A DNA stretch of 64,000 nucleotides from a virus (IMGVR_UViG_3300021387_001709:125812-189811); one strand, 5' to 3'; counted from the first letter of the stretch, positions 20,278-64,000 are shown. Program-made: numbers and translations. Notes: generated from the letters alone by a model not told the origin.

Positions 20278-21386
20278 AGGGAGGTTGCAATGGAAAAATA
20301 CTACATGATTCATAGTTCACTATTCGAGCATATTGGTAACAATACATTCAAATGTATTGCATCCACCAGAAAGAACATGCTCGGCACAATGATAATAAAA
20401 CCCGATTTGCATCAGCCCTGGGTTCATTCGGTCACATCCAAAGATGAAGCAATCCACTGGATGAAAGAGGATGCGTATTGGGATAACGTTGAAGTATATA
20501 CACTTGAAGGGAGATGATACAATGATAAATATCAAAGCTAATAAATGGTCGTTAATTAACTACTTCGACGTCTGGGGAAACGCAGACGACGGTTACTTTG
20601 TAAACAACCAGTGCGTTGAGGTAGACGACCTCAATATCACTGAGGACGCAAACGAAAAGGATATTCTCCAATATCTTGAGTCGATTGGATTCCTCGGTAC
20701 TTCCGACCGCCGGAGAGTTCGGCTTGAGGATTCTGGTAACATGATTGAGATCTACGCGGTCAAGGGGCATTATCCCCTTGGTTGCTTGATGATGAACTAT
20801 TAAAAAGGAGATAACGCTATGAGGAGAGCAACAAATATCATGTGGGATTATGATGAGGATGAGTTTGGTGGAACGGCATTATTTTTAGGCTTGCCCGATC
20901 ACGTTGACATTCCAAGCGAAATTGACGACGAAGATATTGCTGACTATTTATCGGATACTTATGACTTTTGCGTATTTGTATTTGATATTGAGGAGGTGGC
21001 ATCATGAGAATTATGAACTGCTCTATTCCGAATTGTGTACCGGAATATAATCGTTCTCGCTTCGAAGATGAAGCCCACGAAGCGGAAAAGGAATGGGAAC
21101 GGCTGACATGGTACGAGAAAAACAAAGCGTACCGCCGGCAGAAGTACATCGACGGTTGCAATGAACTTCAGTTCTATCCAACGGAATGTGAGAAATGTCC
21201 ATACGGAGAGGAAGCGATGCCGGACTCCGAGATGGACGATATTCCCACCATGATTTGTAGCAACTGGAAAAACTGCCAGGTGTACCGAAATGATGCAGAC
21301 GAACATTTTCCGACAGTACCATGGGAAGAATATTGTAGCTGGAGAGAAGAGTATGTAGAAAAGCTTAAGAAGGGAGAAGCGGAATA

Positions 21387-21689
21387 GTGAAAGAAAGAGA
21401 ATATGTCATATACATGGCACCAATGAGTGTGAGTTACACATTCAGAGATTTTGATTTCGCCATGGCTCATGATTGGAAGATGGCTGATTACGTTCCGGTT
21501 TGGCGCGGAACAATATCAAGCGAAACGGTAAACGGAGCGCTTGAAAGACTGTTTGTTATATTCAATACAGACGAACGTCCGTCACAGTATTGTGGAAGAT
21601 CACTTAGCATGTCAGATGTGGTAGTGCTTGATGGAATTCCGTACTACTGTGACAACATTGGATGGAGCGAATGTCCGAGAGATTATTAA
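21387..21689 (+). CDS. YodL-like domain protein
   Basis: LERLFVIFNTDERP..Y.GRSLSMSDVVVL...YYCDNIG. Confidence 0.75.
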   Translation: MKEREYVIYMAPMSVSYTFRDFDFAMAHDWKMADYVPVWRGTISSETVNGALERLFVIFNTDERPSQYCGRSLSMSDVVVLDGIPYYCDNIGWSECPRDY

Positions 21690-35491: not shown

Positions 35492-35869
35492 ATGGCTAGA
35501 GCTGGCAAGATGAAGAAAAAATGTGAAAAATATAGAAACCAGGGACGTAAGGAAATCAATAAAGAACTTCGTGCAAAGCGTCACGAGGCTCGTATGAAGA
35601 AATTTGCAGATCGCCGAGAAGCCGGCAAAACATATAAGTATAAACCCAATCCTTATAAAGAAGAAACATTCGAATATAATCGTGAAGTTCTGGAACGTGC
35701 CGAGAAGAACAGATCTAAGCGAACAGAATTTGATAAAATGAAATCTATCATGCGCAAACTTCAGAACAAAATCAATGCGCAGAAAAAGGCGGCGAAAGCT
35801 GCGGAGAGTAGTACTACGGAGAAGAAATCTCCGAGGAAAAATAAGAGGAGGAAAAATGATGATAATTAA
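35492..35869 (+). CDS. very basic (K/R-rich) small protein
   Basis: Composition; AAGGAG RBS. Confidence 0.7.
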   Translation: MARAGKMKKKCEKYRNQGRKEINKELRAKRHEARMKKFADRREAGKTYKYKPNPYKEETFEYNREVLERAEKNRSKRTEFDKMKSIMRKLQNKINAQKKAAKAAESSTTEKKSPRKNKRRKNDDN

Positions 35870-36414
35870 ATGGAATCATTATTATAGTAGCGAATGGAAA
35901 ACAACAAACATAAATGTTTCTTATGCGGAAATGAATTAATTATTAAATGGGATGAAAAAGGATATGGCTATTCGACTAAGTTAGGTGTATGCCCGGGATG
36001 TGGTAAAGTTGTCATCCTAGAAATCATAGAAGACAGATGGATTACGGATTGGGGGCGAGAGTTATTTGAGTACGATAAAAACAAACTTTGATGTGGTAAA
36101 AGGATTCGATGCTGAGAGGATGGCAGCTTTCTTAGCTTCTATAGAAAAAGATATCTGTGATGGTCATAACATTGAAGTGAGTGAATTCGATCTCGAAATG
36201 TTGAAGATAAAGTATTATAAATTCTTGCTCACTCCATGTCCGGAATATTTGGGAGTAGTTGATTAGAGGTAAGGCAAGGCAAATCTAATGTATTTGGTAG
36301 TGTTAATATTTGGGATTTGCATAGGGGTTATGGTAGCAGGCGGAGCAACGATATTATTTATTGTCTCAATTACTCCGCAGAAAGAGTTATACGAGTTATT
36401 AAAGGAGGACAACA

Positions 36415-47462: not shown

Positions 47463-49514
47463 ATGTTGAACTTCAAACTGATAAAAGACGCAATAGAGAG
47501 CCATTTTTCAACTATGGTAGAGAAGTATAATTGTTTGTATGAAGTCAATCTTGACAAGGATGAACTGTGGAATACCTACATGGAAGCAATTCCACCACAG
47601 CACAACAAAATATACCGTGTTCGCCGCGAACATGATTGCAGTTGTTGCCGACATTTTATTAAACAGATTGGTGCTATTATCGGAATTAAAGACGGCAGAG
47701 TCGAATCCATCTGGGATGTGACAACCGGAGATGACGATTGGGATGCGGTTTGCAAAACATTATCCACATTTGTGAAATCACACGGAATCATGAGCGTGTA
47801 TTATTCGCCGAGTGCTAATGTCGGTACGAACTACAATATGGACACAGACGAAGACGGGAATCCGATTAGGTGGGATCACTTCTTTGTTAAGCTTCCGCAG
47901 AAGTATGTTAAAAGTGGCGAGTATTTAAATTCTGCGGTCGGAACGTCCAGAGATAATAAGAATGTATTCAAAAGAAGTCTTGATGAGTTAACAATGGACT
48001 CGATTGACTCCGTACTCGAACTTATTAATCAGAAGTCATTGTATCGAGGAGAGGAGTATAAAGCAAATCTGATTGATTTCCGAACTCATAAAATTGCTTA
48101 TGATAAGCTAGCGGACGAGACTCAGAAAGACATCTACGCTTGGGAGAAATCTCCGAGCCTTCGTGAGTCGGTGACTAAAATCCGCAATACAGCAATCGGC
48201 ACATTACTGATCGACATTAGTAATGGTGTAGAACTTGATGAAGCTGTTCGTAAATATGAGGCGGTAGTTGCTCCGGCAAATTATAAGCGTAGCAAGCCGA
48301 TCTTTACGCAGCGTATGCTGGAAGAAGCACAGAGAACAATAACAGAACTCGGTTATCTCGATTCGCTCAAGAGAAGATATGCAAATCCCGATGATATTAC
48401 GGTTAATAACATTCTGTTCAGTAACCGTGATGCGTCAAAACGTATCCAGGGTGCAGACGATATCTTTGCAAGCCTTGCGAAGGATACCAAGAAATCCGCA
48501 AAGAAATTCTCCAAGGTTGAAGAAATATCTATTGAGGACTTTATTAAAAATGTTCTTCCCACAACTACAGAGGTCGAAGCATATGTAGAGAACAAACATG
48601 CTTCAAATTTTGTTTCACTGATTGCTCCGGTTGACAAGAACAGTAAGACGATGTTCAAGTGGGATAACAATTTTAGTTGGGCATACTCTGGTAATATGAC
48701 TGACTCCATCCTGAAGCAGAATGTCAAAAATGCCGGTGGTAAAGTTGATGGTGTTCTTAGATTCTCGATTATGTGGAACGATAATGGTGAATGGAACCAG
48801 AACGACGAAGACGCTCATTGCATTGAGCCGGATGGCAACAAAATCTTTTTTGCAAATAAGCGTAGCGCTTCCGGCGGTAATCTTGATGTAGACATTATAG
48901 ACCCTATAAATGGAATTCCAGCGGTTGAGAATATTACATGGGCAAGTAAGGACAGAATGAAACCTGGAACTTATAAGTTCTTTGTTAATACATATACTGG
49001 GCGTGGCGGTCACGGTGGATTCAGAGCCGAGGTTGAGTGTAACGGTGAAATTCACTCCTATGACTATTCATTTGATACTCGTACCGGGAGAAATGTGGAT
49101 GTTGCTGAGGTTGTACTTGATAAGACCGGTAACTTTACCATCAAGGATGTGATTCCTTCCAATATTAGTAACAGAGATATCTGGAGTATTACAACCAATG
49201 ATTTTGTCCCGGCTAATGTGATTTGTTACTCGCCGAATTATTGGGATGAGCAGCATGGTATCGGCAACAAGCATTACTTCTTTATGCTGAAGGGTTGCGT
49301 AAATCCTGAAATGCCGAACGGTTGGTATAATGAGTTCTTAAACAGTGACCTGTATCCGGCTCACCGTAAGGTTATGGAGGCTATGGCAACCAAGGCTCAT
49401 GTTGAAGAGTGTGATGATCAGCTTAGCGGTCTGGGATTCAGTTCTACGGTGAGGAATGATTTGGTAGTTAAAGTCAAGGGCTCTACTGAGAGAATTCTCA
49501 AGATTAAATTTTAA
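47463..49514 (+). CDS. conserved large phage protein of unknown function
   Basis: HDCSCCRHFI, NTAIGTLL, APANYKR, DEDAHC, LDVD, AVENITW, QLSGLGFS. Confidence 0.8.
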   Translation: MLNFKLIKDAIESHFSTMVEKYNCLYEVNLDKDELWNTYMEAIPPQHNKIYRVRREHDCSCCRHFIKQIGAIIGIKDGRVESIWDVTTGDDDWDAVCKTLSTFVKSHGIMSVYYSPSANVGTNYNMDTDEDGNPIRWDHFFVKLPQKYVKSGEYLNSAVGTSRDNKNVFKRSLDELTMDSIDSVLELINQKSLYRGEEYKANLIDFRTHKIAYDKLADETQKDIYAWEKSPSLRESVTKIRNTAIGTLLIDISNGVELDEAVRKYEAVVAPANYKRSKPIFTQRMLEEAQRTITELGYLDSLKRRYANPDDITVNNILFSNRDASKRIQGADDIFASLAKDTKKSAKKFSKVEEISIEDFIKNVLPTTTEVEAYVENKHASNFVSLIAPVDKNSKTMFKWDNNFSWAYSGNMTDSILKQNVKNAGGKVDGVLRFSIMWNDNGEWNQNDEDAHCIEPDGNKIFFANKRSASGGNLDVDIIDPINGIPAVENITWASKDRMKPGTYKFFVNTYTGRGGHGGFRAEVECNGEIHSYDYSFDTRTGRNVDVAEVVLDKTGNFTIKDVIPSNISNRDIWSITTNDFVPANVICYSPNYWDEQHGIGNKHYFFMLKGCVNPEMPNGWYNEFLNSDLYPAHRKVMEAMATKAHVEECDDQLSGLGFSSTVRNDLVVKVKGSTERILKIKF

Positions 49515-49528
49515 TGGGGGTATTGTTT

Positions 49529-49918
49529 ATGAATGAAAGAAATATTTTTAAGGAAGCCACTAAAAAGAAATATAGATGGAATTTCCGCGGTGTTTGCACC
49601 GTTGAAGATCTTTGGGATCTGAATGTCGAGCATCTCGACACCATCTATAAAGCACTGAAGAAACAGCAGAAGGATGCTGACGGGGAATCGCTTCTTACTA
49701 CGGCAAGTAAAGAAGACGTAGTGCTGGAAGACAAAATTGCAATTGTTAAGGCGATTGTAACAGATAAACTTGCGGCAATTGAGGCAGCTAAAAATGCTGC
49801 AAAGAAACGTCGCGAGAACCAGCGTATCCTGGAAATCATTGCGGATAAACAGGACGCGGCTCTTAAGGAGAAATCCCTGGAAGAACTTCAGGCAATGTTA
49901 ACAGCGGAAGAGGATTAA
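49529..49918 (+). CDS. conserved partner of the 47463 protein (coiled coil)
   Basis: NIFKEATKKKYRW..RG...VEDLWDL. Confidence 0.8.
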   Translation: MNERNIFKEATKKKYRWNFRGVCTVEDLWDLNVEHLDTIYKALKKQQKDADGESLLTTASKEDVVLEDKIAIVKAIVTDKLAAIEAAKNAAKKRRENQRILEIIADKQDAALKEKSLEELQAMLTAEED

Positions 49919-49934
49919 TTTAGGAGAGGTTGTA

Positions 49935-50651
49935 ATGGCAAGGTGGACGGATAAAGATATATAGATATTAAAAGAGATGGTTGACGATAACAGAACTAAT
50001 TTAGAAATAATGGAGCGTTTGAATAGAAGTGAATATGGTATTCAATATGCAATGAGAAAATATAATTTAGTTAGGTCAACCGAGATAGAAGATTTAGAAA
50101 ATGAAATATGGAAAGACATCCCAGGTTATGAAGGGTATTATCAAGTAAGTAATTATGGAAGAGTTAAAAGTTTGCCTCGATGGATTGTATATTCAGATGG
50201 CAGAAAATATTTTTATGATGGTGTATTATTAAAACAAAAGCATGACCACGGCGGATATTGCGGAGTGGAATTAACTACCAATTCTGAATTGGAAACGTTC
50301 AAAGTACATAGACTTGTAGCAAAAATGTTTATTCCAAACCCAGATAATTTACCGGAAGTTAATCATAAAGATGAAAACAAAGATAACAACTGCGTAGATA
50401 ATTTAGAGTGGTGTGATAATTATTATAATAATCATTATGGTACAAGATTAGAAAGAATGCGGGAAAAAATAGTCGAAGCAGTTGGAAGGCCGGTAGAATT
50501 TACTAAAATTAGTACCGGCGAGAAATTCTATTTCCCAACCATAACATCTGGAGTGAAAGAATTAAATTTAGACCCAAGAACTGTTCAAAGATGTTTAAAG
50601 AAAGAACCTCGTTTCAAGACTACAAAAGGCTATACTGTTGAATATGCATGA
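49935..50651 (+). CDS. NUMOD4-HNH homing endonuclease (in-frame TAG at codon 10 if started at 49935; stop-free from 49977)
   Basis: EIWKDIPGYEGYYQVSNYGRVKS; VHRLVA..F...VNHKDENKDNN.VDNLEWC. Confidence 0.85.
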
Positions 50652-51654
50652 TTTAATAAAATATGATTATGATCAATTAAATGAATTATGTAATAAAATT
50701 AGTCTGTTAGAATATGCAGAAAAATCCTATGATTTTAAAAATCGTGGCGGAAAATATTATTGTAGCTGCCCAAAGCATAGTGATTCCGACCCATCTTTAT
50801 GCATAAGCCCAGATGTCAATTTATTCTATTGTTTCTCATGCGGAAGAGGAGGAAATCTAATAAATTGGCTGATGGAATATGAGGATATGGATTTTTCTGC
50901 AGCTATTCAAAAGGTGTCGGAATTAACGGGTTCAGAACTTCGTGAATATACGGAATCTACATCGATGAATTTATATCGACAATTAAGTAAATTATGTGAA
51001 CCTAAAAATAAAAACATACAACGTATAATTCTTGATATTGACAAAGATTATCATCAAAAATATAAAGATGAGTCTCCAGAAGAATGGCTTAATGAAGGTA
51101 TCTCCGAAGAGGAGCTTAAAAAATACGATATTCGTATTGATCCAACAAGTAATAGAATTGTATATCCTGTATTTTCTAATGATGATAAGTTGATATCCGT
51201 CAAAGGGCGTACTCGCTTTAAGAATTTTAAAGACCTGAAAATTATGAAGTATATTAATTATTATAAACTTGGCGGGAGACTTGACTACTTCCAAGGAATG
51301 CAACAAGCTCGCGACTCAATCAATAGTTCTGGAGAAATCATCATTGTTGAGGGTATCAAATCGGTGATGAAGCTTGATCAGTGGGGATTTCACAACGTTG
51401 TTTCAGCGGAAACATCCAAGCTGAATGAATACCAGATTGAATTACTAATCCGAATGAAGGTTCGAGATGTGGTCATTGCATTCGATAAAGACGTTCAGAT
51501 GAAAAAAATACGTGAGTGTACAGAATTATTAAAAAGATTTACTAACGTATATGTTGTTTATGATAGATGGGGATTGCTACAAGATAAGGACTCACCATGT
51601 GATCAGGGACGCGAGGTTTGGCAAACTTTATATGATAAGAGGATAAAATTATGA
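50638..51654 (+). CDS. DNA primase (CHC2 zinc finger plus TOPRIM)
   Basis: CPKH.D.DPS...FYCFSCGRGG; IIVEGIKS; AFDKD; KDSPCD. Confidence 0.9.
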   Translation: MNMHDLIKYDYDQLNELCNKISLLEYAEKSYDFKNRGGKYYCSCPKHSDSDPSLCISPDVNLFYCFSCGRGGNLINWLMEYEDMDFSAAIQKVSELTGSELREYTESTSMNLYRQLSKLCEPKNKNIQRIILDIDKDYHQKYKDESPEEWLNEGISEEELKKYDIRIDPTSNRIVYPVFSNDDKLISVKGRTRFKNFKDLKIMKYINYYKLGGRLDYFQGMQQARDSINSSGEIIIVEGIKSVMKLDQWGFHNVVSAETSKLNEYQIELLIRMKVRDVVIAFDKDVQMKKIRECTELLKRFTNVYVVYDRWGLLQDKDSPCDQGREVWQTLYDKRIKL

Positions 51655-52571
51655 TTAAGCAGAAACATTTTATGGATATTGAGAATCTTCGTGAGGAAGA
51701 TACGGAACTCCGACAGGGGAACGGCCATGGGTTTGTAGTTGGAGATATCATTCAGATTAGCGAGAAAATTGACGGATCTAACGCTTGCTGTAAGTATAAT
51801 CCAGAAACGGATTCACTTGTTGCGTTCTCTAGGAAACAGACGCTTTCGTATACCAATACGCTTCAGGGATTTTGGAACTATGTTCAGACATTGGATAAAA
51901 CACCATTTAAAGATCATCCGAGTTGGTACATATTCGGCGAACAGAATGGAACGAACAAGATTAAATATAAACCCGAATTCATGAAGGTATGGATCGTATA
52001 TGATATTTACGACGCTGACACCGAGTGCTGGCTTCCGCAAACTACAGTAAAGAATTGGTGCGAAGAATATGGATTCCCATATATTCACGAACTCTATTAC
52101 GGACCATTTATTAGTTGGGAGCATTGTAAGTCATTTTCTCATATGCCGGCATACGGTGATAGAATCGAGGGAATTATAGTTAAGAACCAATCTCGTCTTA
52201 ATTGCCCCGACACTCGTCTCCCGTTCTATCTGAAGATTGTCAATGATGACTTCAAAGAGTCGATGAAGACTCGCGAAAAAGTAATCGACCCAACGGTAGA
52301 AGCAGCAAAATCCGAATCACAGAGAATCGTGGAATCGATTGTCACCAAAAATCGTGTCGAGAAAGAGCTCTTCAAGATGCGTGATGAGGGTATTCTTCCG
52401 GAAAAACTTACTCCTTACGACATGGGATTAGTTGCGAGATATTTGCCGAAGCGTATCTATGATGATTGTGTTAAAGAAGAAAAGGAACTGGTTGTTGCTG
52501 CCGGTGAGTATTTTGGCAAAATGTGTAACGCCCAGGCTATGAAACTGGCAAGGGGGATTATTACCGGATGA
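51651..52571 (+). CDS. RNA ligase (Rnl2-like nucleotidyltransferase)
   Basis: Motif I EKIDGSN, FSR, FGE, YDI, EGIIVK, LKIV. Confidence 0.8.
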   Translation: MIKQKHFMDIENLREEDTELRQGNGHGFVVGDIIQISEKIDGSNACCKYNPETDSLVAFSRKQTLSYTNTLQGFWNYVQTLDKTPFKDHPSWYIFGEQNGTNKIKYKPEFMKVWIVYDIYDADTECWLPQTTVKNWCEEYGFPYIHELYYGPFISWEHCKSFSHMPAYGDRIEGIIVKNQSRLNCPDTRLPFYLKIVNDDFKESMKTREKVIDPTVEAAKSESQRIVESIVTKNRVEKELFKMRDEGILPEKLTPYDMGLVARYLPKRIYDDCVKEEKELVVAAGEYFGKMCNAQAMKLARGIITG

Positions 52572-53437
52572 ATGAATTTACAGAAGACGCGTTTATCGTT
52601 GGAACCATGCGCTGGTCATTTTCTCGGTTAAACAGTTTTGATACGTGTCAATACGAATGGCATAGAGTTTACATTGATGCTACTACCGAAAAAGATGATT
52701 CCGCAATGGCACAATTTGGTTCGCTAATCCATTCCATCTTGGAGAAATATGCTAAAGGTGAACTTGATATATTTGAATTGAGCCAGTATTATGAAGAACA
52801 TTTTAATGAAGTAATAACCTATGATTTTCCGCCGAATAAATACGTTGACCTTCGCCAGAAGTATTATGAACAAGGTTTAGATTACCTGGACAACATTAAT
52901 CTAGACCTTGACCGCTATAATATACTCGGCGTGGAACGTGAAGTAAACTTCGACATCAACGGTTATGATTGTATCGGATTCATAGATTTATTACTTCAGG
53001 ATAAAGACACCGGCGAGATTATCATCGAAGACCACAAAAGTGCTTCGATAAAAATTCTTAAATCAGGCGCAGTTTCTAAGAAGGATAGGGAGCATTTTGA
53101 ATCATTTAAGAAACAGTTATACCTGTATGCAAAACCAATAATTGAAGAGTATGGTCATGTGGATAAATTAAAATGGAATTTATTCAAGGAACAACGATTT
53201 ATTGAAATACCGTTTGATCAGAAGGAATATGAAGCCAGTATTATCTGGGCAGCTGATACGATTAATAGAATTGAGAATGAGACTGAATGGGGCATAAATA
53301 AAGAACTTATTAAAGCCCGAGAGGAGAATAAGTATCCCCCATTTTACTGCATGAACTTGTGTTCTATTAGGTATCATTGCCCGTATAAATATGAACAGTT
53401 AGAGATGTTGAGGATAATGAATGAGGGTGGTGATTGA
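52568..53437 (+). CDS. PD-(D/E)XK (RecB/Cas4-like) nuclease
   Basis: SFSRL...C, GSLIH, GFIDLL...EDHKS, QLYLY, C..LC....C. Confidence 0.85.
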   Translation: MNEFTEDAFIVGTMRWSFSRLNSFDTCQYEWHRVYIDATTEKDDSAMAQFGSLIHSILEKYAKGELDIFELSQYYEEHFNEVITYDFPPNKYVDLRQKYYEQGLDYLDNINLDLDRYNILGVEREVNFDINGYDCIGFIDLLLQDKDTGEIIIEDHKSASIKILKSGAVSKKDREHFESFKKQLYLYAKPIIEEYGHVDKLKWNLFKEQRFIEIPFDQKEYEASIIWAADTINRIENETEWGINKELIKAREENKYPPFYCMNLCSIRYHCPYKYEQLEMLRIMNEGGD

Positions 53438-54349
53438 TTGGCAAAGAAAGGATCTGAATGGACAGATGAAGAGATAAAAATACTAGAAGAGTGTTATAGC
53501 AAATATATGCCAATGTCCGAAGTTATTAAAATGCTTCCGAAAAGAACGACTGGAGCTATTTCTTCAAAGGCTAAAAAAATTGGATTAACAAAAAAATACA
53601 TTAAAACAAATAACGCAAAATATAGTGCCGATTATAATGATTATGATTGGTGCTATGAACGTTTTATTAATAGATGTATGTCAGCCGAAGAAATAGCAGA
53701 AGAATCTGGATACTCAAAGAGAGTAATTGAAAAATGGCTATATGAGAAGCATCGCTTAGACTATAAACGAGATTTTAGATTAAATGATTTACAAAAAATG
53801 TTGGTTATTTCTGGATGTCTTGGTGATGGGCATATAGCAAAAAAGCATTCTGTATATATTGAGTCACATGCGGAAAATCAGAAGGATTATATGTTTTGGA
53901 AGTTTAATATATTAAAAAACATGTGTAAATTAAAAGGGCCAACGTGTTATCCAGCGAAAATAAAATGGTTTAATAATAAGTCTTATGAATGTCAAGCATC
54001 ATATAGAATAACAACTAGAGAAATCGACCAGTTGGCTAAAATTAGAGATATGACACGATATGATAAAATTGATTATCTGGATGATTTTGGATTTTCAACT
54101 CATTTTTTGGACGATGGTTATTATAATGGATATGACTGGGAAATATGTTTAGCTGAGTGGAGTAAGGAAGAGAAGGATTTATATATTAGAAAATTAAAAG
54201 AACTTTTTAATGCTATTGCATGGTATCAAAAAGACACAAGATATATCACACTTGATAAAGAATCAAGCGATATAATGAATAAAATAATTTTAGAGAATGT
54301 ACCGAGTAATTTAGATATTATTAAATATAAGGTATTAAAGGTGGCATAA
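53438..54349 (+). CDS. free-standing LAGLIDADG homing endonuclease with N-terminal HTH
   Basis: ISGCLGDGHI and THFLDDG; AT-rich; abuts dnaE. Confidence 0.8.
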   Translation: MAKKGSEWTDEEIKILEECYSKYMPMSEVIKMLPKRTTGAISSKAKKIGLTKKYIKTNNAKYSADYNDYDWCYERFINRCMSAEEIAEESGYSKRVIEKWLYEKHRLDYKRDFRLNDLQKMLVISGCLGDGHIAKKHSVYIESHAENQKDYMFWKFNILKNMCKLKGPTCYPAKIKWFNNKSYECQASYRITTREIDQLAKIRDMTRYDKIDYLDDFGFSTHFLDDGYYNGYDWEICLAEWSKEEKDLYIRKLKELFNAIAWYQKDTRYITLDKESSDIMNKIILENVPSNLDIIKYKVLKVA

Positions 54350-57300
54350 ATGGGTAATAATTATACCGTGCTTCATTTACATAGTATGGATTCCAACCCT
54401 AAAAGTGGTTTAACAATAGATTCAGTAACACCGTTTCAGGATTATATATTAAAAGCAAAAGAATGTGGTATGACAGCTATCGCTTTTACAGAACATGGCG
54501 CTGTACTACATAACGTTGCTAAAAAGCAGATGTGTGAAAAGAATGGAATAAAATACATCCACGGTCAAGAATTTTATATAACAGAAACAATCGATAAAGA
54601 AAATTTAGTGAGAGATAATTATCATCTTATAATGCTTGCTAAAAATAAAGAGGGCGTTAGAGAGATTAATTATCTCTCATCAATAGCTAATAACCGGGAG
54701 GATGGACATTATTATTACACACCAAGGATTGAATTATCTGATATCCTTAATACTTCTGATAATGTTTTAATACTTACCGCTTGTTGTGCCGGAATTTTAT
54801 GTAGAGGGACATCTTCAGTAAAAGAAAAATTTCTCACATTTATAATCAATAATAAACATCGTTGTTGGTTAGAAATACAACCGCATAAGTTCGATACTCA
54901 AATTCAGTATAATCAGTATCTTTATAAAATATCACAGGAATTCAATATCCCTCTTGTTGCCACGAGTGATGTGCATGCAGTATCTAAAGATCACTTAATG
55001 GGAAGAGCCGTCATGCAAAAATCAAAAAAAATTGTGTTTCATGATGAGGATGAATGTGATTTAAGCTGGCATGATTATAACGAAATGATTGATGCTTTTA
55101 AAACACAGGATTCGCTCCCGGAAGAAGTTTATCTTACTGCAATAGCTGAAACAAATCATATTGCAGAGTTAATTGAAGACTATAAACTTGATTATAGCAA
55201 TAAATATCCTAGAAGAGAAAATGCGGAAGAGGAATTTAAAAAACGTATCAAGGATGGAATTAAAGAACATAAACTTGAAGAGCTACCAAATTATGAGACT
55301 GATTATCTTCCGAGGATAAAAGAAGAATTCGACACATATAAGCATAATGATGCTATAGATTTTATGTTGCTTGACTCTGATTATAAAAATTGGATGAGAG
55401 AACAAGGCATGTATTATGGACCATCAAGAGGATCTGTGTCAGGCAGTTTAATTGCATGGCTTATACATAGCACTGATGTCGATTCTGTAAAATATAATTT
55501 GAATTTTTCTAGGTTTATGAACCCAGACCGCCAATCGTTGGCCGACGTGGATACAGATATTTATGCCGAAGATAGGTATAAAGTGCGAGAATATTTCTTT
55601 AATCGTCCCGACGTATATTGTTGTAACATTCTTACTTTTAATACAATAAAAATGAGAGGCGCCATTAAAGACGTTGCAAGGGCATTTGATATGCCAATTG
55701 ATGAAGCACAAAAAATTTCTAATACCGTCTATGAAGATGACAAAAAAAATGAGTTCGTTCCAGATGAAATAAGAAAAAAATATCCAGAACTATTTTTTTA
55801 TGTGGATATGGTCATGGGAACAATAGTATCGCTTGGGCGACACGCAGCCGGAATAGTAGTTTCTCCAACTGATTTAAGATATGATTTTGGGACTCTTACG
55901 GTTGATACAGACCCCCGTCCTGTTAGTCAGATTGACATGCATGAAATTGATTCTTTAAATTATGTCAAGATGGATCTTCTTGGATTAAATGCTGTCGGGT
56001 TAATAAACAAAGCATGTAAGTTGGCCGGGATACCAAATCTTACTCCAGATATGGTTGATTTCACGGACGAGAATATTATTAAATCAATTGCTGAAGATGC
56101 AACAATGATATTCCAGTTCGAGTCTGATTATGCTGGAGAAGCATTGGGCAAAGTATTTAGCCCAAAGACTGTTGACAAAATTAAGAAGAAAAATAAAAAC
56201 ATATCATATTTGGATATTATGGCAATGGCGTCAGGTGCAATTCGACCGGCTGGTGAATCATATAGAGATGCATTATTCAATGGTGAGTATCACGATAACG
56301 GTGAAGAAGCCCTAAATAATTTTTTAGTTTCTACACTTGGGTACCTCGTTTACCAAGAGCAGATTATAGATTTTTTACATGATTTCTGTGGTTTTACAAT
56401 GGGTCAAGCCGATATTATTAGAAGAGGATTTGCCAAAAAAACTGGTACTGAAAAATATATACCTATTATTAAAGATGGTGGATATATGGATGATATTCAC
56501 GGTAATAAAGATGATAGATATGTTCCTGGATATATACATATAGCACAAGAAAAATATGGTATGACAAAAGAACATGCTGAAAAAAGTATTGAGTATTTTC
56601 TTGGTGTAATAGAGGATGCCTCGTCATATATTTTTTCAAAAAATCATTCGGTACCTTACAGCATGATTGGATGGTATATTGGATATTTACGCTACTATTA
56701 TCCGCTTCAGCTTTTTACTGCTGCTTTAAATGTATATAAAGCGAACGAATCCAAGATGATTGAGATAAAAACATATGTAAAATCAAAAGGTATTCAGATT
56801 AGACCCATTAGATTCGGGAAATCTCGTGCAGACTATTTTATGGATGTAAAAGAAAATTGTATTTACAATGATATTGAATCTATCAAAGAGTGCAATGCAA
56901 AAATGGCAGAAGAGTTATATGAATTGAGCAAGAATCATTATAACGATTTTGTGGATCTTCTATTTGATATAAAAGAAAATACATCGGTAAATAAAACTCA
57001 GTTGGATATTCTTATAAAGCTAGGATTTTTTAGCGATTTTGGTGATATAAATCAGTTATTACAAATTACTGGGCAGTTTGATAAATTATACGGCAAAAAA
57101 TCAATCAAAAAGGACTCACCGTTCGTAAAGCTACTCACAGAGGAAACACTACGAAAATTCTGCGATTCCGAAACTCCGACACATGTTGACGAAATTGACT
57201 ACAATCTGTATCTACGTTCACTCGGTATAATTAATATCGAAGAAGAACTCCAGGATTGTATTAAATACAAGTATGAAAAACATGATGACGGCACTAAGGA

Positions 57301-57835
57301 TAAAATCCCCAACGGCTATAGCTTCGCAAAGATTTTTAAGAAGTATGAGATAACCGATGAGGAAAAACAGAAGTATGCAACCAAAACCGTATATGGAAAA
57401 TTTGATGGTATTCATACTAGGCAACTACTGAAATATTTATTAAACATATGTCAGTATCCGCCGTGTTCTGTTAAACAGAAAATCAAATATGAAGAGGAAC
57501 TTCTCGGCTATATTGATTATAAAGACCCAAAACTTCCCAAGAATTATTTCGTAGTCACGCAGCTTGACGATAAGTACTCGCCGAAGTTTACCGCATACTG
57601 CTTAAATAACGGCTCAACAGCCGAAATGAGAGTGCGTAAAAAGCGTAATCCCAAAAATCGCAATGACAAATGCAAGAAATCGTTTACCGATCAGCCGTTT
57701 GAGAATGGAGATATTTTATATCTAATATCCTGGGGGAAAGAACCTAAGATGAGAAAAACAGACACCGGGTGGGAGAGAGACCCGTCGGTTATGTATATTT
57801 GGATGTATGATTATGATCTAATTGACAATTTGTAA
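54350..57835 (+). CDS. dnaE: DNA polymerase III alpha subunit (family C)
   Basis: PHP domain LHLHS/FTEHG; RGSVSGS; DVDTD; RHAAG; KMDLLGL; YQEQ; FSKNHS. Confidence 0.95.
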   Translation: MGNNYTVLHLHSMDSNPKSGLTIDSVTPFQDYILKAKECGMTAIAFTEHGAVLHNVAKKQMCEKNGIKYIHGQEFYITETIDKENLVRDNYHLIMLAKNKEGVREINYLSSIANNREDGHYYYTPRIELSDILNTSDNVLILTACCAGILCRGTSSVKEKFLTFIINNKHRCWLEIQPHKFDTQIQYNQYLYKISQEFNIPLVATSDVHAVSKDHLMGRAVMQKSKKIVFHDEDECDLSWHDYNEMIDAFKTQDSLPEEVYLTAIAETNHIAELIEDYKLDYSNKYPRRENAEEEFKKRIKDGIKEHKLEELPNYETDYLPRIKEEFDTYKHNDAIDFMLLDSDYKNWMREQGMYYGPSRGSVSGSLIAWLIHSTDVDSVKYNLNFSRFMNPDRQSLADVDTDIYAEDRYKVREYFFNRPDVYCCNILTFNTIKMRGAIKDVARAFDMPIDEAQKISNTVYEDDKKNEFVPDEIRKKYPELFFYVDMVMGTIVSLGRHAAGIVVSPTDLRYDFGTLTVDTDPRPVSQIDMHEIDSLNYVKMDLLGLNAVGLINKACKLAGIPNLTPDMVDFTDENIIKSIAEDATMIFQFESDYAGEALGKVFSPKTVDKIKKKNKNISYLDIMAMASGAIRPAGESYRDALFNGEYHDNGEEALNNFLVSTLGYLVYQEQIIDFLHDFCGFTMGQADIIRRGFAKKTGTEKYIPIIKDGGYMDDIHGNKDDRYVPGYIHIAQEKYGMTKEHAEKSIEYFLGVIEDASSYIFSKNHSVPYSMIGWYIGYLRYYYPLQLFTAALNVYKANESKMIEIKTYVKSKGIQIRPIRFGKSRADYFMDVKENCIYNDIESIKECNAKMAEELYELSKNHYNDFVDLLFDIKENTSVNKTQLDILIKLGFFSDFGDINQLLQITGQFDKLYGKKSIKKDSPFVKLLTEETLRKFCDSETPTHVDEIDYNLYLRSLGIINIEEELQDCIKYKYEKHDDGTKDKIPNGYSFAKIFKKYEITDEEKQKYATKTVYGKFDGIHTRQLLKYLLNICQYPPCSVKQKIKYEEELLGYIDYKDPKLPKNYFVVTQLDDKYSPKFTAYCLNNGSTAEMRVRKKRNPKNRNDKCKKSFTDQPFENGDILYLISWGKEPKMRKTDTGWERDPSVMYIWMYDYDLIDNL

Positions 57836-57847
57836 GGAGTAATCATT

Positions 57848-58378
57848 ATGAAAATAGATGAAATATTAAATGAAATTAATAGTCTTTCCGATGAATATAA
57901 ACAAAAAATATTAGCCGAATTAAGAAAAGTAATCGAAGAAAAATACAATAGCCAAATTCGAGAAAATGTCAACACTAATAGGAAATATGTTGGAAAATGT
58001 TATTGTGAAGATACGCGCCCGAAAAATGGTATATTCCCTAAAATGAAAAAATATTACAAAATAATTTCAGAAAGATCAAACAATGATGATTATGTTTCGG
58101 CGCTTATATTCTATGAACATCCATTATATTGGTTTGATTATAAAAGGTCAGCCATAAGTCGTCCTGGGGATTATTTTTTAGGTAACTTTGATTTTTATGG
58201 GTTTTATGTAGATGATATATGGAATAGAACTTTAAATACAATGAAAGAAATTACGAACGACGAATATAATACCGCAGCGCGAAAACACACTGACGAATTA
58301 TTAGAATTAAAATGGAGTGCCGATCATTATCGATTTGGCGGAAAATTACCTACTGATTCAGATTGGGAGAAACAGTGA
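57848..58378 (+). CDS. hypothetical protein
   Basis: AT-rich ORF with RBS. Confidence 0.7.
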   Translation: MKIDEILNEINSLSDEYKQKILAELRKVIEEKYNSQIRENVNTNRKYVGKCYCEDTRPKNGIFPKMKKYYKIISERSNNDDYVSALIFYEHPLYWFDYKRSAISRPGDYFLGNFDFYGFYVDDIWNRTLNTMKEITNDEYNTAARKHTDELLELKWSADHYRFGGKLPTDSDWEKQ

Positions 58379-58396
58379 AATAATTTATTAAATCCC

Positions 58397-58425
58397 TTGT
58401 AAATACTGAATTATAATGCTATAAT
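58397..58425 (+). promoter_or_regulatory. sigma-A promoter
   Basis: TTGTAA-17-TATAAT with TG; TAATTTATTAAA upstream. Confidence 0.7.
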
Positions 58426-58442
58426 AGAGGAGTAACAAATAG

Positions 58443-59144
58443 ATGAACAAACCACTTAATAACCCGATTAAAGTACTGGAACTATTCTCCGGCTTTGAGT
58501 GCATGAGTAATGCATTCAGAGAACGAGGATGTCAGTGCTTTACCGTTGATTATGACGAACGTTTTCCGAGTGACCTTCACAAGGACATTCGGGACATAAC
58601 TGCCGAAGAGATACTTACTCTCTTTGGCAAACCCGATATAATTTTCCTCGGCACTGATTGCACCACATACTCCGTGGCTGCAATCGGTCGTCACCGAACC
58701 AAGGAACCTAGCGGAAATCTCGCACCCAAAACCGATAAAGCCCGTCTTGCGGACGAACTCAACATCCATTGCATAGAGCTAATAAAACAATTAAATCCCA
58801 CAATTCAAATTTGGGAGAATCCCGTCGGCGCTCTCCGCAAGATGGATTTCATGAAGTGTATTCCGTATATCAATACTACCACATATTGCCAGTACGGTTT
58901 CAGTTACCGCAAGGCTACGGACTTTTTTAGCAACATCAATCTTCATTTGAAACCACCTTGCAAAAATGGCGACCCATGTCATGAACCGGCAAGTCGAGGT
59001 GCCAGAACCGGTCTCCAGGCTATCAAAGACCCAGCACTAAAGGCTATATATCCGCCGGAACTTTGCAAGGACATTGTCACACAATGCTTAAAAGTTATTT
59101 TCAGTGGCGAGAAACCGCCGCTTTTTAAAGAACCTATTGATTAA
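58443..59144 (+). CDS. short C5 cytosine methyltransferase-like protein
   Basis: VLELFSG, TDCTTYS, WENP, YCQYG..RKAT. Confidence 0.7.
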   Translation: MNKPLNNPIKVLELFSGFECMSNAFRERGCQCFTVDYDERFPSDLHKDIRDITAEEILTLFGKPDIIFLGTDCTTYSVAAIGRHRTKEPSGNLAPKTDKARLADELNIHCIELIKQLNPTIQIWENPVGALRKMDFMKCIPYINTTTYCQYGFSYRKATDFFSNINLHLKPPCKNGDPCHEPASRGARTGLQAIKDPALKAIYPPELCKDIVTQCLKVIFSGEKPPLFKEPID

Positions 59145-59159
59145 TTATTAAAGGAGAAT

Positions 59160-59864
59160 ATGATTATGAGCCATTTTGCGGTAGCGGTTATACACCGAGA
59201 TGACCAATCAGTAGAAGAATTATTGGCACCATATAATGAGAACCTCGATGTTGAGCCATACATAGAATACACCAAAGACGAAGCGATAGCATATGCCAGA
59301 GAACATTATCTGGACAAAAATGCCTCAGATGAAGCTTGTTATGAGTATATGGTGGATGATTATATTGTCGATGATAATGGAAACTTGCTTTCCACATATA
59401 ATCCAAAATCCAAATGGGATTGGTGGATGCCTGGAGGAAGGTATTCGGGATTACTAAAGAATAAAAATGGAACTCCAATCGATGAAGGCAGAATTAAAGA
59501 TTTAGATCTTGATTTAGACGAGGCGGAATACCAATATCGTTTGAGATACTGGGATGTTGTAGTCAATGATTCGCCGCTGAAACCCGGAGAAACTAATGAC
59601 TCTTTTTTCAACAGGTTCAAGAAAGAGTATTACACTCGCCGTTATAGGGACGCAGAAACATACGCCAAAATTATGACAACATTTTCCACATATGCGGTAG
59701 TAACTCCGGATGGTGAATGGCATGCCCCGGGCAACATGGGATGGTTTGGTATGAGTGATGAGTCTGATGAATCGTGGATTGATTGGGTTAGTAACTATGA
59801 TGATAGATTTATTAGCGGTTCAGACCCCAATTGGATATTGACTATAGTAGATTGCCATATTTAA
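59160..59864 (+). CDS. conserved hypothetical phage protein
   Basis: SHFAVAV, YNPKSKWDWW..GGR, TPDGEW...G.MGWFG, VDCHI. Confidence 0.8.
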   Translation: MIMSHFAVAVIHRDDQSVEELLAPYNENLDVEPYIEYTKDEAIAYAREHYLDKNASDEACYEYMVDDYIVDDNGNLLSTYNPKSKWDWWMPGGRYSGLLKNKNGTPIDEGRIKDLDLDLDEAEYQYRLRYWDVVVNDSPLKPGETNDSFFNRFKKEYYTRRYRDAETYAKIMTTFSTYAVVTPDGEWHAPGNMGWFGMSDESDESWIDWVSNYDDRFISGSDPNWILTIVDCHI

Positions 59865-59876
59865 TGAGGAGGATCA

Positions 59877-60410
59877 ATGTTATTAGAGAATTACCGATAC
59901 ACATAGAAGGAACAGGATGAACTGTTGAAGAGTATTACGATTGTTTGTGATACCAGAGAACAGAAGAACGAACATATCACTTCGTACTTCGACAGCAAAA
60001 AAATCCCGTGGATAAGTAAAAAATTAGACACGGCAGATTACACATTTATGATCCCGAAAAACGAGGAACTCGGCATAACTCGTGATTTATGGTTCGATAA
60101 AGAATGTGTGATAGAGCGGAAGAATAGTTTAGAAGAAATCAGCGGCTGCCTAACTCAGTCCAGGGATCGGCTTAAAAAGGAATTCGCTTTAGCTCCGGAA
60201 AACAAGATAATGATCATCGAGAACGCAACATACTCCGACATGGTACTCGGCAACTATGATACGAAGTATGATGCTAAGAGCTTCTGGGCCAGTTACCATA
60301 GCTTTTGGAACGAGTTCAATTTACCGATTATGTTTATTCCGGACAAAAAATATACCGGAATGTTTATCAGAGGACATTTTTATTATTACGTGAGAAACAT
60401 AATTAAATAA
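59877..60410 (+). CDS. ERCC4/XPF-family nuclease (in-frame TAG at codon 10 if started at 59877; stop-free from 59925)
   Basis: DTREQ, ADY, IERKNSLEE. Confidence 0.8.
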
Positions 60411-60421
60411 GGAGAAAGATT

Positions 60422-60874
60422 ATGATTAATTTTATTAATGCAGATATAAAACTCGCACCCCAGGGTTATACAATCGTCAGTGCGTTTTCAGCCGACTTTA
60501 ATTGTAGCGTCGGTATCAATAAAGTAATGGATCAGATGTTTAATATTGAGAAACGTAAATCCAATATTAAAGTATTTAAGGGCGGTAAGCTTGCCCGACT
60601 TGATAATTTATATATGCTGCTTGTTAAAGATATGAGTTATGATAAACCGGTGTTTGATAATCTTATTGCTTGTCTTGAGGAGTTCAAAACCAAGTGTAAA
60701 AAGAACGGTATCACAAAAGTTGCCATGCCGGCAATTTGTACCGGGAAAAATGGTTTTGCCGTTGATGATGTAATTCAGGCAATCGATGAGATATTTTTTG
60801 ACACTAATATTAATATTGTTATGTATGTAGGCGATGAAGTATTTAGATATGTTTGTTCCGCATATGAGGATTAA
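60422..60874 (+). CDS. macrodomain protein (TARG1/DarG-like, divergent)
   Basis: SADF..S.GI, LLVK..SYDKP....L..CL, VAMPAICTGKNG. Confidence 0.7.
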   Translation: MINFINADIKLAPQGYTIVSAFSADFNCSVGINKVMDQMFNIEKRKSNIKVFKGGKLARLDNLYMLLVKDMSYDKPVFDNLIACLEEFKTKCKKNGITKVAMPAICTGKNGFAVDDVIQAIDEIFFDTNINIVMYVGDEVFRYVCSAYED

Positions 60875-62962: not shown

Positions 62963-63225
62963 CGTTAATGTAATCACCTAGAGGTAATTAAATAAGAAGG
63001 AAGGAGACATCATGAACTATCGGACATGTCCTATCTGTGGAAGAGCAATGATCCTGTGCAGTACATATGCACATGGTCAAGTACCTAAAAGAATTTTTAA
63101 ATGTGGCTGCGGTTTCCGGACAGATGTGGATATGTCCGGTTTGTCGTATGTGGATTTCTTAAACAGATATCACTTTGGTGATAAAAGTAACAATAACAAA
63201 CCGATTAATTATTAAAGGAGAATTA

Positions 63226-64000
63226 ATGATAACTAATAAAATTAGATTGATTGAGCTATTCGGCGGTGTTGGATGCCAGTCGATAGCATTGAGGGATTTG
63301 GCTATTGCAAATGGTCTTAATCCGGATGACGTATATTGTCACCACCGCCTCGTAGAATTTGATAAGTTTCCGGTCAAAAGCTATAATGCGATTCATGGTA
63401 CTAGCTTCGAAACAATGGATATTAAAGAGATTGGAGGTGATGATTTAGGGATCAGGGATACTGATAAGTATACTTATATCATGACTTATAGTTTTCCCTG
63501 CCAATAGTGCATGACCTTTCAGTTGCCGGTAAGCAAGCCGGAATGGATAAAGATAGTGGAACAAGATCATCATTACTTTGGGAAGTTGAGCGCCTGTTGA
63601 ATGAACTGGAAGAACTTCCACAGGTACTTATCATGGAGAATGTCACTCAAGTTCACAGTAAGAAAAATTTAGAGAATTTCCAGAACTGGATTTCGTTCCT
63701 TGAATCCAAAGGCTATCACAATTACTGGCAAGATCTCGAAGCCAGTGAGTATGGCGTACCGCAGCATCGTAACCGTTGTTTTATGGTTAGCACACTCGAG
63801 GACATCAACTATGAATTTCCGCGACCAATTCCGCTTCATGAAGTTATGAAAGACCGACTTGATCCTGTTGTAGATGAGAAATTCTACATCAACAATGAAA
63901 AAGCGGATGCCCTCATTCAGCAACTTATTGCCGACGGTAAACTTGATGAGGAGACAATCCTCGAAGCTGTTGATTTATCGGTTAATAAACCGGACACTCT
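63226..64000 (+). CDS. C5 cytosine DNA methyltransferase interrupted at motif IV (stop plus frame change); runs off the window
   Basis: First frame: IELFGGVG...TYSFPCQ*. Second frame from 63513: DLSVAGKQAGM...GTRSSLLWEVERLL...MENV...YGVPQHRNR. Confidence 0.85.

Follow-up and report, generated by a model that had tools for sequence, protein, structure and literature searches.

Phages that read TAG as glutamine (genetic code 15) are already known, and both their genomes and the gating of gene expression by recoded stop codons have been published (Borges et al., bioRxiv 10.1101/2021.08.26.457843). In Agate phages, the homing endonuclease of an early-gene intron was proposed to be held back by an in-frame TGA; in the same work, 60% of the TAG-recoded genomes had no detectable suppressor and non-canonical tRNAs were expected (Borges et al., bioRxiv 10.1101/2021.08.26.457843). 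Recoding in crAss-like phages was confirmed by metaproteomics (Peters et al. 2022, PMC9523058).

The genome analyzed here is that of an SPbeta-like gut phage, 189,811 bp in length, and its final 64 kb constitute the stretch of DNA called the window below. The phage resembles the code-15 gut phages, whose hosts use the standard code, in genome size (~200 kb), predicted Firmicutes host, the use of TAG as Gln, recoded structural and lysis genes and largely standard replication genes; a suppressor tRNA(CUA), for which it has a candidate, may be a further common feature. It could not be assigned to any of the clades named by Borges et al., and SPbeta-like proteins (YonG, YonD, YonB, YomW and YomU) make up its structural genes. 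It also differs from code-15 gut phages in having no RF2 and in the degenerate elbow of the putative suppressor. A contig of Coprococcus catus carries a related terminase, which gives a hint, and no more, of the host group. A megablast search with positions 49500–60500 against 50,697 phage records gave zero matches.

Two TAG codons of the window, at 49962 and 59904, are likely to be sense codons that tie two nucleases to the late, recoded phase of a partially code-15 phage. The evidence for this reading and for its rivals is presented below.

TAG is used as a glutamine codon in the late genes

An earlier note on the window had proposed that TAG is read as sense in this phage, likely as Gln; the coding density and the alignments with Gln upheld this proposal, and a candidate CUA tRNA outside the window speaks in its favour. 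Under code 11, the coding density of the genome was 0.774; it reached 0.889 when TAG was taken as sense, compared with 0.799 for TGA and 0.838 for TAA. The gain was confined to the structural/lysis block. This late block extends over 43.6–117.3 kb of the genome on the minus strand, wholly outside the window, and its products include portal, terminase, tail proteins and endolysin, with matches that span the TAGs. Conserved late genes were split by TAG under code 11 and became whole once TAG was treated as sense. A total of 268 in-frame TAGs was detected across 36 of the 47 long genes of the block (12.0 per 1000 codons, 29% of the Gln codons in the block), and the ORFs of 3516 and 2795 aa bear 67 and 70 of them, respectively. 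The recoding is concentrated in late genes, a pattern mentioned in the note as frequent in code-15 gut phages, with 268 TAGs in the late block versus two robust cases in the 64-kb window.

In the comparison with homologues, TAG was found opposite Gln. Four of the nine TAGs of the terminase gene fell at columns occupied by Q in 120 of 120 homologues, a set which takes in code-11 genes such as P0089 (translated under table 11). Relative to the code-11 relative L010, Q stood opposite 12 of 41 TAGs, against a background of 3.4% (p = 7e-9). When the phage's own TAGs were compared with those of a recoded relative, G001, the matching codon was TAG in 132 cases, CAG in 25 and CAA in 9, and any other codon occurred at most four times, so that CAG or CAA accounted for 34 of the 70 replaced late-gene TAGs.

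Decoding of TAG as a residue other than Gln (pyrrolysine, or else Ser, Leu or Tyr inserted by CUA tRNAs with a long variable arm like those of relatives) and an origin of the TAGs in assembly errors are both extremely improbable. The default ARAGORN label for CUA tRNAs is indeed Pyl, and the CUA tRNAs of the relatives L009 and L013 show a class-II-like long variable arm. However, the alignments indicate Gln and not a Lys-like residue, Ser, Leu or Tyr, and the phage's own tRNA(CUA) has A1–U72, G2, G3 and G73 in common with the phage tRNA-Gln(UUG) (39924–39999, plus strand), which is itself not a suppressor. The same TAGs were found again in independent assemblies, which argues against assembly errors.

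TAG is depleted in the window

The window contains replication and early genes in the standard code, in which TAG is avoided. The near-absence of TAG stops described in the earlier note was only partly borne out, as such stops are depleted but not absent. In the right arm, with the late block excluded, at most 10 of 120 ORF ends were TAG, whereas TAG made up 20.7% of stop trinucleotides (p = 2e-4); standard-code relatives have TAG at ~22% of ORF ends. No TAG was present in ~4,900 codons of the replication genes in the window, where the late-block frequency predicts ~58. The TAG-ending genes had also been described as backed by another stop within two codons. Sequence inspection agreed with this for the plus-strand genes 21004–21387, with a TAG-TGA tandem stop (21385–21390), and 36066–36266, which ends in TAG-AGG-TAA (36264–36272), but not for the TAGs at 12506 and 28281, followed by the next stop after 36 and 5 codons, respectively. 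Position 63507 was rejected as a gene end, as it belongs to a broken methyltransferase.

Two further loci had been put forward as read-through examples. The frame of the small early ORF at 12344–12508 (plus strand) does pass its TAG (12506–12508) to reach an ATGA overlap with the next gene, but in the related genome G002 the TAG is shifted upstream by two codons and is followed by indels of 14 and 22 nt, neither a multiple of three, around a conserved hairpin with a 13-bp stem (12514–12551, plus strand). The stretch after TAG 12506 is therefore a non-coding gap and this TAG a real stop. For the zinc-ribbon mini-gene with ATG 35894 (35870–36091, plus strand), the sequence was as described, with ATG 35870 opening a possible 8-codon extension (MESLL, two TAGs at 35885–35890, then R). 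The tandem TAGs were preserved in G001 and replaced by TGG-TAG with a 3-nt deletion in G002, and a third frame is likewise open in all three genomes; the case is ambiguous. Neither the 12344 nor the 35870 example carries the claim of recoding, and the genes that are recoded in the strict sense are found outside the window. It was also considered whether TAG read-through joins the TRD mini-genes, found at the start of the genome, into a single protein; this was rejected, as they lie in differing frames and one pair alone joins, via TAG TAG.

A genome-wide screen was performed for starts with a Shine–Dalgarno (SD) match of at least 5 nt, a TAG within 40 codons and at least 60 open codons thereafter. 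Its sole returns within the window were the sites at 49935 and 59877.

Two nuclease genes with TAG at codon 10

The first of these sites is the start of an HNH homing endonuclease gene (49935–50651, plus strand). The true start is ATG 49935, preceded by the SD sequence AGGAGAGG (49922–49929), and the frame crosses a TAG at codon 10 (49962–49964) into ORF 49977–50651, exactly as had been read from the sequence before. The encoded protein comprises, in this order, an N-terminal GcrA/Myb-like helix-turn-helix, a NUMOD4 domain (Pfam, 5.8e-17, 62 bits vs a cut-off of 23.4), an HNH domain (HNH_3, 23.3 bits, slightly below the cut-off of 24.8) and an I-HmuI-like NUMOD domain, and it matches PHROG 59 HNH endonuclease (1.7e-44). 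In the N-terminal DNA-binding domain, the TAG falls within the first helix, and phrog_323 covers residues 3–44, thereby spanning it. The WTD..I.IL motif previously noticed in both the 49935 and the 53438 proteins is common to them, with a BLASTP alignment across the TAG (E 9e-5) in which the TAG faces a K of the 53438 protein's paralogous domain, the one paralogue available.

The protein resembles the I-HmuI-type NUMOD4-HNH endonucleases of Bacillus phages in its NUMOD4, HNH and I-HmuI NUMOD-like domains and in its sporadic presence at one intergenic site, but differs from them in the additional N-terminal helix-turn-helix interrupted by TAG. In G001, the same flanking genes enclose no copy of the gene; the independent contig L104 carries it at the same site, with the same ATG and TAG and 98% identity, so that this TAG is known from two near-identical copies only. 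A homologue search with residues 1–60 returned only the gene itself and its L104 copy, and the matches of IMG/VR relatives were almost confined to residues 54–238; at three loci with an apparent extension into the N-terminus, the frames could not be read.

The second site is the start of a gene for a 177-aa structure-specific nuclease of the ERCC4 type, i.e. with the Hef/XPF/Mus81 fold (59877–60410, plus strand). The claimed reading frame was again recovered, with the true start at ATG 59877 behind the SD sequence GAGGAGGA (59866–59873) and the TAG at codon 10 (59904–59906), the only one of the gene, leading in frame into ORF 59925–60410. The protein matches phrog_3490 (1.3e-43) and Pfam ERCC4 (24.4 bits vs a cut-off of 24). 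A sequence search of the PDB gave no match, so that folds had to be compared: the best Foldseek matches of the AlphaFold model (pLDDT 94) were the nuclease domain of Hef (1j22/1j24), XPF and Mus81 (probability 1.00, E 5e-8, TM 0.81–0.83 on the target). The DTRE, GDY and ERK residues are invariant or nearly so in the family; among 65 homologues, E28, D54, E80, K82 and E87 are invariant and D25, R27 and R81 near-invariant. The phage protein has the ERCC4 fold and the catalytic residues (acidic and ERK) in common with Hef, XPF and Mus81 (PDB 1j22, 1j24, 2bhn and 2ziu), but it is a stand-alone domain with neither a helix-hairpin-helix dimerisation domain nor a helicase. As a member of this superfamily, it would be expected to cut DNA at branches, flaps or junctions.

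It is very unlikely that the two TAGs are true stops, whether behind a nine-codon leader ORF, with the nucleases starting at TTG 59925 and ATG 49977, or in decaying genes. Gene callers working under code 11 do give the truncated proteins P0243 and P0244 and many ERCC4 entries of 158–165 aa, and weak SD-like AGGA or AAGAG sequences precede the downstream starts. On the other hand, the ERCC4 relatives begin upstream of the TAG and not at TTG 59925, which is CTG or CTT in relatives; what precedes the TAG is part of the N-terminus conserved in the family, as far as Bacillus prophage homologues. The residues ahead of the ERCC4 TAG were modelled as ordered helices (pLDDT 86–97), the N-terminal domain of the HNH protein would lose its first helix, and TAG is decoded hundreds of times elsewhere in the genome.

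The TAG of the ERCC4 gene, read as a sense codon, is also conserved. It is invariant in G001, G002, L121, L122, L123 and L124 while the flanking codons vary, and in the gene tree 12 of the 14 clade members retain it, down to 54–60% protein identity. The remaining two members have AAG and a Gln codon at the site. The retention is partly due to shared ancestry. In L183, which represents a second recoded lineage (its terminase gene bears 9 TAGs), an independent TAG is located two codons downstream, and Asp occupies the TAG site in G007, the one standard-code relative checked.

Proposed coupling of the two nucleases to the late phase

The phage is SPbeta-like, infects gut Firmicutes by prediction and is recoded (code 15) in part, with TAG serving as a glutamine codon in the structural, packaging and lysis genes on the opposite strand. 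According to the proposed mechanism, ribosomes without the suppressor would halt after nine residues of either nuclease, and the build-up of tRNA(CUA) would allow the full-length HNH and ERCC4 enzymes to be made. A single TAG at codon 10 would in this way link nuclease synthesis to the late phase, when a cutter of branched DNA may be needed to clear concatemers for packaging and, being made late, could no longer harm replication. Both the late timing and the harm of early nuclease expression are inferred, as is the suppressor role of the tRNA(CUA). The suggestion of the earlier note that TAG could gate the expression of nucleases finds support in the conserved TAG of the ERCC4 gene and in the second, independent TAG of the other recoded lineage. 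Against it, the internal ATG 49977 could still yield an active NUMOD4-HNH core, and a single TAG could set the amount of protein instead of its timing.

A non-regulatory origin, in which both TAGs are ordinary Gln codons left by chance in two nucleases through CAG/TAG drift, appears unlikely, although less so than true stops. The free exchange of TAG with CAG or CAA in late genes, seen in about half of the replaced TAGs relative to G001, speaks for it. In addition, two members of the ERCC4 clade keep the gene although the site is AAG in one and codes for Gln in the other, and the HNH copy is restricted to two near-identical genomes. Against it, the replication-gene codons in the window are otherwise TAG-free, which points to clear selection against drift, and the ERCC4 TAG is retained in 12 of 14 genes compared with 4 of 14 (29%) for late-gene TAGs at 76% amino acid identity. 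Moreover, the second recoded lineage gained a separate N-terminal TAG, and both TAGs of the window occupy codon 10, a position where termination costs least.

The coupling of the nucleases to the code switch has a parallel in the Agate intron endonuclease, which is likewise a selfish endonuclease in the early/replication region with translation expected to await the switch. The Agate case involves TGA and an intron-borne gene, whereas the HNH gene described here has a single TAG at codon 10 and is free-standing between two genes. A broader interpretation can be offered tentatively, as somewhat less probable than its converse: the amber codon at the start of Hef/XPF-type nucleases may be a dedicated, selected timer that arose on two or more occasions among SPbeta-like phages with TAG recoding and couples branched-DNA cutting and homing endonuclease activity to the suppressor tRNA. 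On this view, the code change may spread jointly with selfish nucleases, as suggested by a GIY-YIG homing endonuclease gene with 6 in-frame TAGs that adjoins the very tRNA(CUA) it would need.

For annotation, the window should be read with code 15 in mind, since code 11 yields two truncated nucleases, as in public protein sets. The ERCC4 gene, with one codon and a small enzyme, offers a compact and testable case of stop-codon recoding as a proposed infection timer, for which the relatives, differing at this site (TAG, Gln, Lys or Asp), provide natural controls.

A candidate suppressor tRNA in the late block

The tRNAs of the window are those for Leu, Met, Ser, Gly and Gln(UUG) only, in agreement with the observation that no CUA tRNA is visible there. 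A candidate tRNA(CUA) was identified elsewhere, at c112928–113000 of the genome, 12.8 kb before the window and within the late block. Its acceptor stem comprises 7 bp, its anticodon loop reads CU-CUA-AC and its GC content is 71%. It was the sole extra ARAGORN match, obtained at a relaxed threshold only. Its elbow is non-canonical, with the D-loop ACCAGCUA lacking GG and the T-loop GACGGCA in place of a T-psi-C loop. No match to Rfam RF00005 was obtained for it even at E 10, and tRNA-Pro alone reached the gathering score in an Rfam scan of the 123 kb outside the window.

An identical copy of the tRNA(CUA) is present in G002. No homologue was found in G001, which is equally recoded, and hence the tRNA(CUA) stands as a candidate decoder only. 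Canonical CUA tRNAs are encoded by the TAG-recoded relatives L009 (at the same place) and L013 (adjoining tRNA-Pro), and none was detected in the examined stretches of code-11 relatives. TAG is probably decoded by the phage-borne tRNA(CUA). Such an odd putative suppressor tRNA, together with a recoded relative lacking a homologue of it, bears on why most recoded phages seem to have no suppressor.

Decoding of TAG by tRNA-Gln(UUG) through first-position wobble was considered as well and judged unable to serve the ORFs with 67–70 TAGs. RF2 or GlnRS had been named in the earlier note as possible companions of the code change; in the whole genome, neither an RF-1/RF-2 domain (PF00472) nor GlnRS/GluRS (PF00749) was found, and the positive controls worked. 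A second tRNA-like element, a possible alternative suppressor with no Rfam match, adjoins tRNA-Pro (L001:6631–6715, minus strand; also in G001) and is characterized by a weak acceptor stem and A33.

Amber recoding of the late genes

The record is a single virus sequence of 189,811 bp with a G+C content of 38%, the window corresponding to bases 125,812–189,811. A megablast search gave no match among deposited phages, and protein searches revealed hundreds of gut-metagenome relatives of 130–220 kb, whose structural genes belong to the SPbeta-type Pfam families YonG, YonD, YonB, YomW and YomU; one related terminase was located on a Coprococcus catus contig.

Treating TAG as a sense codon raised the coding density from 0.774 to 0.889, compared with 0.799 for TGA and 0.838 for TAA. 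The gain came entirely from the late block on the minus strand (genome 43.6–117.3 kb), in which the density per 10-kb bin increased from 0.52–0.81 to 0.85–0.99. This block codes for terminase, portal, tail proteins and endolysin, with profile matches spanning the TAGs, and 268 in-frame TAGs were detected in 36 of the 47 genes that encode 100 aa or more, accounting for 29% of the late-block glutamine codons. Two ORFs of 3516 and 2795 aa contained 67 and 70 of them, respectively. In the right arm at most 10 of 120 ORFs ended in TAG, several of these being antisense or tRNA-region artefacts, whereas TAG accounts for 20.7% of the stop trinucleotides and terminates about 22% of the ORFs in standard-code relatives. 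The amber recoding proposed in an earlier note from in-frame TAG codons and the scarcity of TAG stops was a correct and careful observation. The late block also carries a gene for a class-V aminotransferase/cysteine-desulfurase-like protein (L004:15261–16529, minus strand, genome 98261–99529; Pfam Aminotran_5, 2e-84), and a possible role in tRNA thiolation would merit attention, given the altered decoding of this phage.

The earlier guess of glutamine as the inserted residue was checked in alignments. Four of the nine terminase TAGs fell in columns occupied by Q in 120 of 120 homologues and two more in Q-majority columns, in a mixed set in which some homologues were themselves translated with TAG as Q (P0002) and others with table 11 (P0089). 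Against the table-11 relative L010, Q stood opposite 12 of 41 TAGs (background 3.4%, p = 7e-9). In the codon alignment with the recoded relative G001, TAG was opposite TAG 132 times, CAG 25 times and CAA nine times, and opposite any other codon at most four times. Because of these three alignments, TAG is assigned to glutamine in this phage.

Two nuclease genes with TAG at codon 10

The replication module (window 44–62 kb) comprises genes for a DnaB-like helicase, primase, RNA ligase, exonuclease, LAGLIDADG endonuclease, 1161-aa DNA polymerase, methyltransferase, ERCC4 nuclease and macro-domain protein. No TAG was found in about 4,900 codons of the window replication genes, where about 58 would be expected at the late-block rate; therefore, the early genes appear to be under selection to be readable without a suppressor. 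The two exceptions both encode nucleases and both carry the TAG at codon 10. A genome-wide screen required a start with a Shine–Dalgarno (SD) match of 5 nt or more, a TAG no further than 40 codons on and at least 60 open codons thereafter; inside the window, only these two sites, 49935 and 59877, passed.

The ERCC4 nuclease gene (59877–60410, plus strand) has a strong SD and an ATG at 59877, from which the frame crosses TAG 59904 into the ORF 59925–60410, exactly as first described. Its 177-aa product matched phrog_3490 and, marginally, the Pfam ERCC4 family, and was modelled (pLDDT 94) with a Hef/XPF/Mus81 nuclease fold; the DTRE, GDY and ERK residues are conserved. The residues upstream of the TAG form ordered helices in the model, and members throughout the family, Bacillus prophage genes included, share the motif M-L-x-x-Y-[RK]-[YF]-[TS]-x-K-E. 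Alignments and model together indicate that the residues N-terminal to the TAG are part of the protein. Initiation of homologues at the downstream TTG was not borne out, the family motif lying upstream of the TAG and G001 and a second relative, G002, keeping the RBS, ATG and TAG while having CTG or CTT in place of the TTG.

The ERCC4 TAG was also kept in four further contigs despite changes in neighboring codons; in one of them, at 60% protein identity, it is the sole TAG of the gene. Of 78 IMG/VR homologues, 69 have GAT or GAC at the site, six TAG, two GAA and one AAG, and every TAG-bearing gene has exactly one TAG, at the codon-10 site. In a midpoint-rooted FastTree phylogeny, TAG-bearing genes all fell within one 14-member clade, 12 members of which kept the TAG, the other two having AAG and a Gln codon. 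For comparison, late-gene TAGs were retained in only 4 of 14 cases when protein identity was 76%, and the alignment with G001 gave 98 of 156; these retention figures are phylogenetically non-independent raw counts. Outside the clade, L183 (IMGVR_UViG_3300021387_000199) has its own single in-frame ERCC4 TAG two codons further downstream, and its genome represents a second TAG-recoded lineage, with nine TAGs in the terminase. The relative G007 has Asp at the site and a TAG-free terminase. These comparisons, non-independent as they are, point to selection favoring a stop-type codon early in the ERCC4 gene of recoded phages. The interesting part of the finding is this single amber codon heading the gene, conserved and apparently evolved twice; no paper on such a case was found in the literature.

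The HNH endonuclease gene (49935–50651, plus strand) likewise has a strong SD and an ATG at 49935, with TAG 49962 leading into the ORF 49977–50651, as the earlier note described. It encodes a small GcrA/Myb-like DNA-binding domain followed by NUMOD4, HNH and I-HmuI-like NUMOD domains. The first domain matched phrog_323 over residues 3–44 and, in agreement with the similarity noticed initially, the N-terminus of the neighboring LAGLIDADG endonuclease (53438) over residues 2–47, both across the TAG. The gene is missing between the same neighbors in G001 and present at the same site in the independent contig L104, a distribution indicating a mobile insert. The L104 copy has the same ATG and TAG but says little about selection on the TAG because it is 98% identical. 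The internal ATG 49977 could yield the nuclease core.

A candidate decoder tRNA

As noted before, the window has no CUA tRNA. ARAGORN at default settings found six tRNAs in the genome, none with CUA; a relaxed threshold added exactly one, a candidate tRNA(CUA) at genome c112928–113000 (L001:928–1000, minus strand), 12.8 kb before the window. It lies between the terminator of the portal gene and a GIY-YIG homing endonuclease gene (L001:96–818, minus strand) with six in-frame TAGs, directly upstream of the latter. The candidate has a 7-bp acceptor stem, a canonical CU-CUA-AC anticodon loop and a G+C content of 71% (genome 38%), but the D-loop, lacking GG, and the T-loop (GACGGCA) are degenerate, and the Rfam tRNA model gave no score even at E 10. 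Its acceptor end (A1-U72, G2, G3, G73) is that of the in-window tRNA-Gln(UUG). The sequence is identical in G002. CUA tRNAs whose T-loops are normal occur in the TAG-recoded relatives L009, at the corresponding position, and L013, adjoining tRNA-Pro; their acceptor stems show compensatory differences from that of the candidate. No CUA tRNA was found in the examined stretches of three standard-code relatives. Neither a release factor nor GlnRS/GluRS is encoded in the whole genome; the earlier note had suggested looking for RF2 and GlnRS.

The equally recoded G001 (202 kb, rated complete) has no homologue of the candidate, which is a difficulty for its role as decoder; the tRNA and GIY-YIG pair may therefore be a mobile cassette. 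G001 has only a poor tRNA-like element adjoining tRNA-Pro, also present here (L001:6631–6715, minus strand, genome 118631–118715; 93% identity). In this element the T-arm is canonical, the acceptor stem is weak and the anticodon-type loop, which contains CTA, is odd; it is not recognized by the Rfam tRNA model.

Proposed gating of the nucleases

The analyses above establish the recoding, the glutamine assignment, the true start codons and the conservation; the mechanism is inferred. Before suppression, a stop at codon 10 would cost only one nonapeptide. In the simplest reading, both nucleases would be made only after the tRNA(CUA) becomes active, when a junction or flap cutter could serve packaging and would be harmless to replicating DNA. 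Late-only expression through stop-codon recoding corresponds to the model put forward by Borges et al. (bioRxiv 10.1101/2021.08.26.457843), who proposed the same gating for an early-gene homing endonuclease of Agate phage; that gene has an in-frame TGA, whereas the HNH gene has TAG at codon 10. The system belongs to a known kind, and its interest lies in the single amber codon of a small nuclease gene and in its candidate decoder.

Other TAG sites

Read-through of TAG 12506, suggested earlier, was not borne out. In G002 a TAG closes the ORF two codons sooner, a conserved hairpin in the sequence downstream is surrounded by indels of 14 and 22 nt, and the ATGA overlap is not kept, all of which marks TAG 12506 as a genuine stop. 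The hairpin (12514–12551, 13-bp stem), which may be a terminator or protein-binding site, has arms conserved in G002 and partly in G001, and its loop takes a 14-nt insert.

For the candidate extension from 35870, the tandem TAG TAG is kept in G001 and replaced by TGG TAG with a 3-nt deletion in G002. In the third frame (35845–35940), a conserved AGGAGG-N4-ATGATG opens an ORF of 27–28 codons, open in three genomes and overlapping the start of a zinc-ribbon gene.

Position 63507 was rejected as a gene end, as it lies inside a cytosine methyltransferase gene broken just after the PCQ motif. The catalytic half of this C5 enzyme (63175–63998) is frameshifted by an 8-nt insert, TAGTGCAT, at 63505–63512. 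G001 has an intact PCQ-DLS at the break site, and the G002 insert, TAG-CAT, is 6 nt long and keeps the frame; therefore, the G002 enzyme would have a single in-frame TAG beside the catalytic Cys. Elsewhere, two small methyltransferase-region ORFs (L006:784–1386, plus strand, genome 784–1386) are joined in frame via a tandem TAG TAG, an arrangement conserved in G001.
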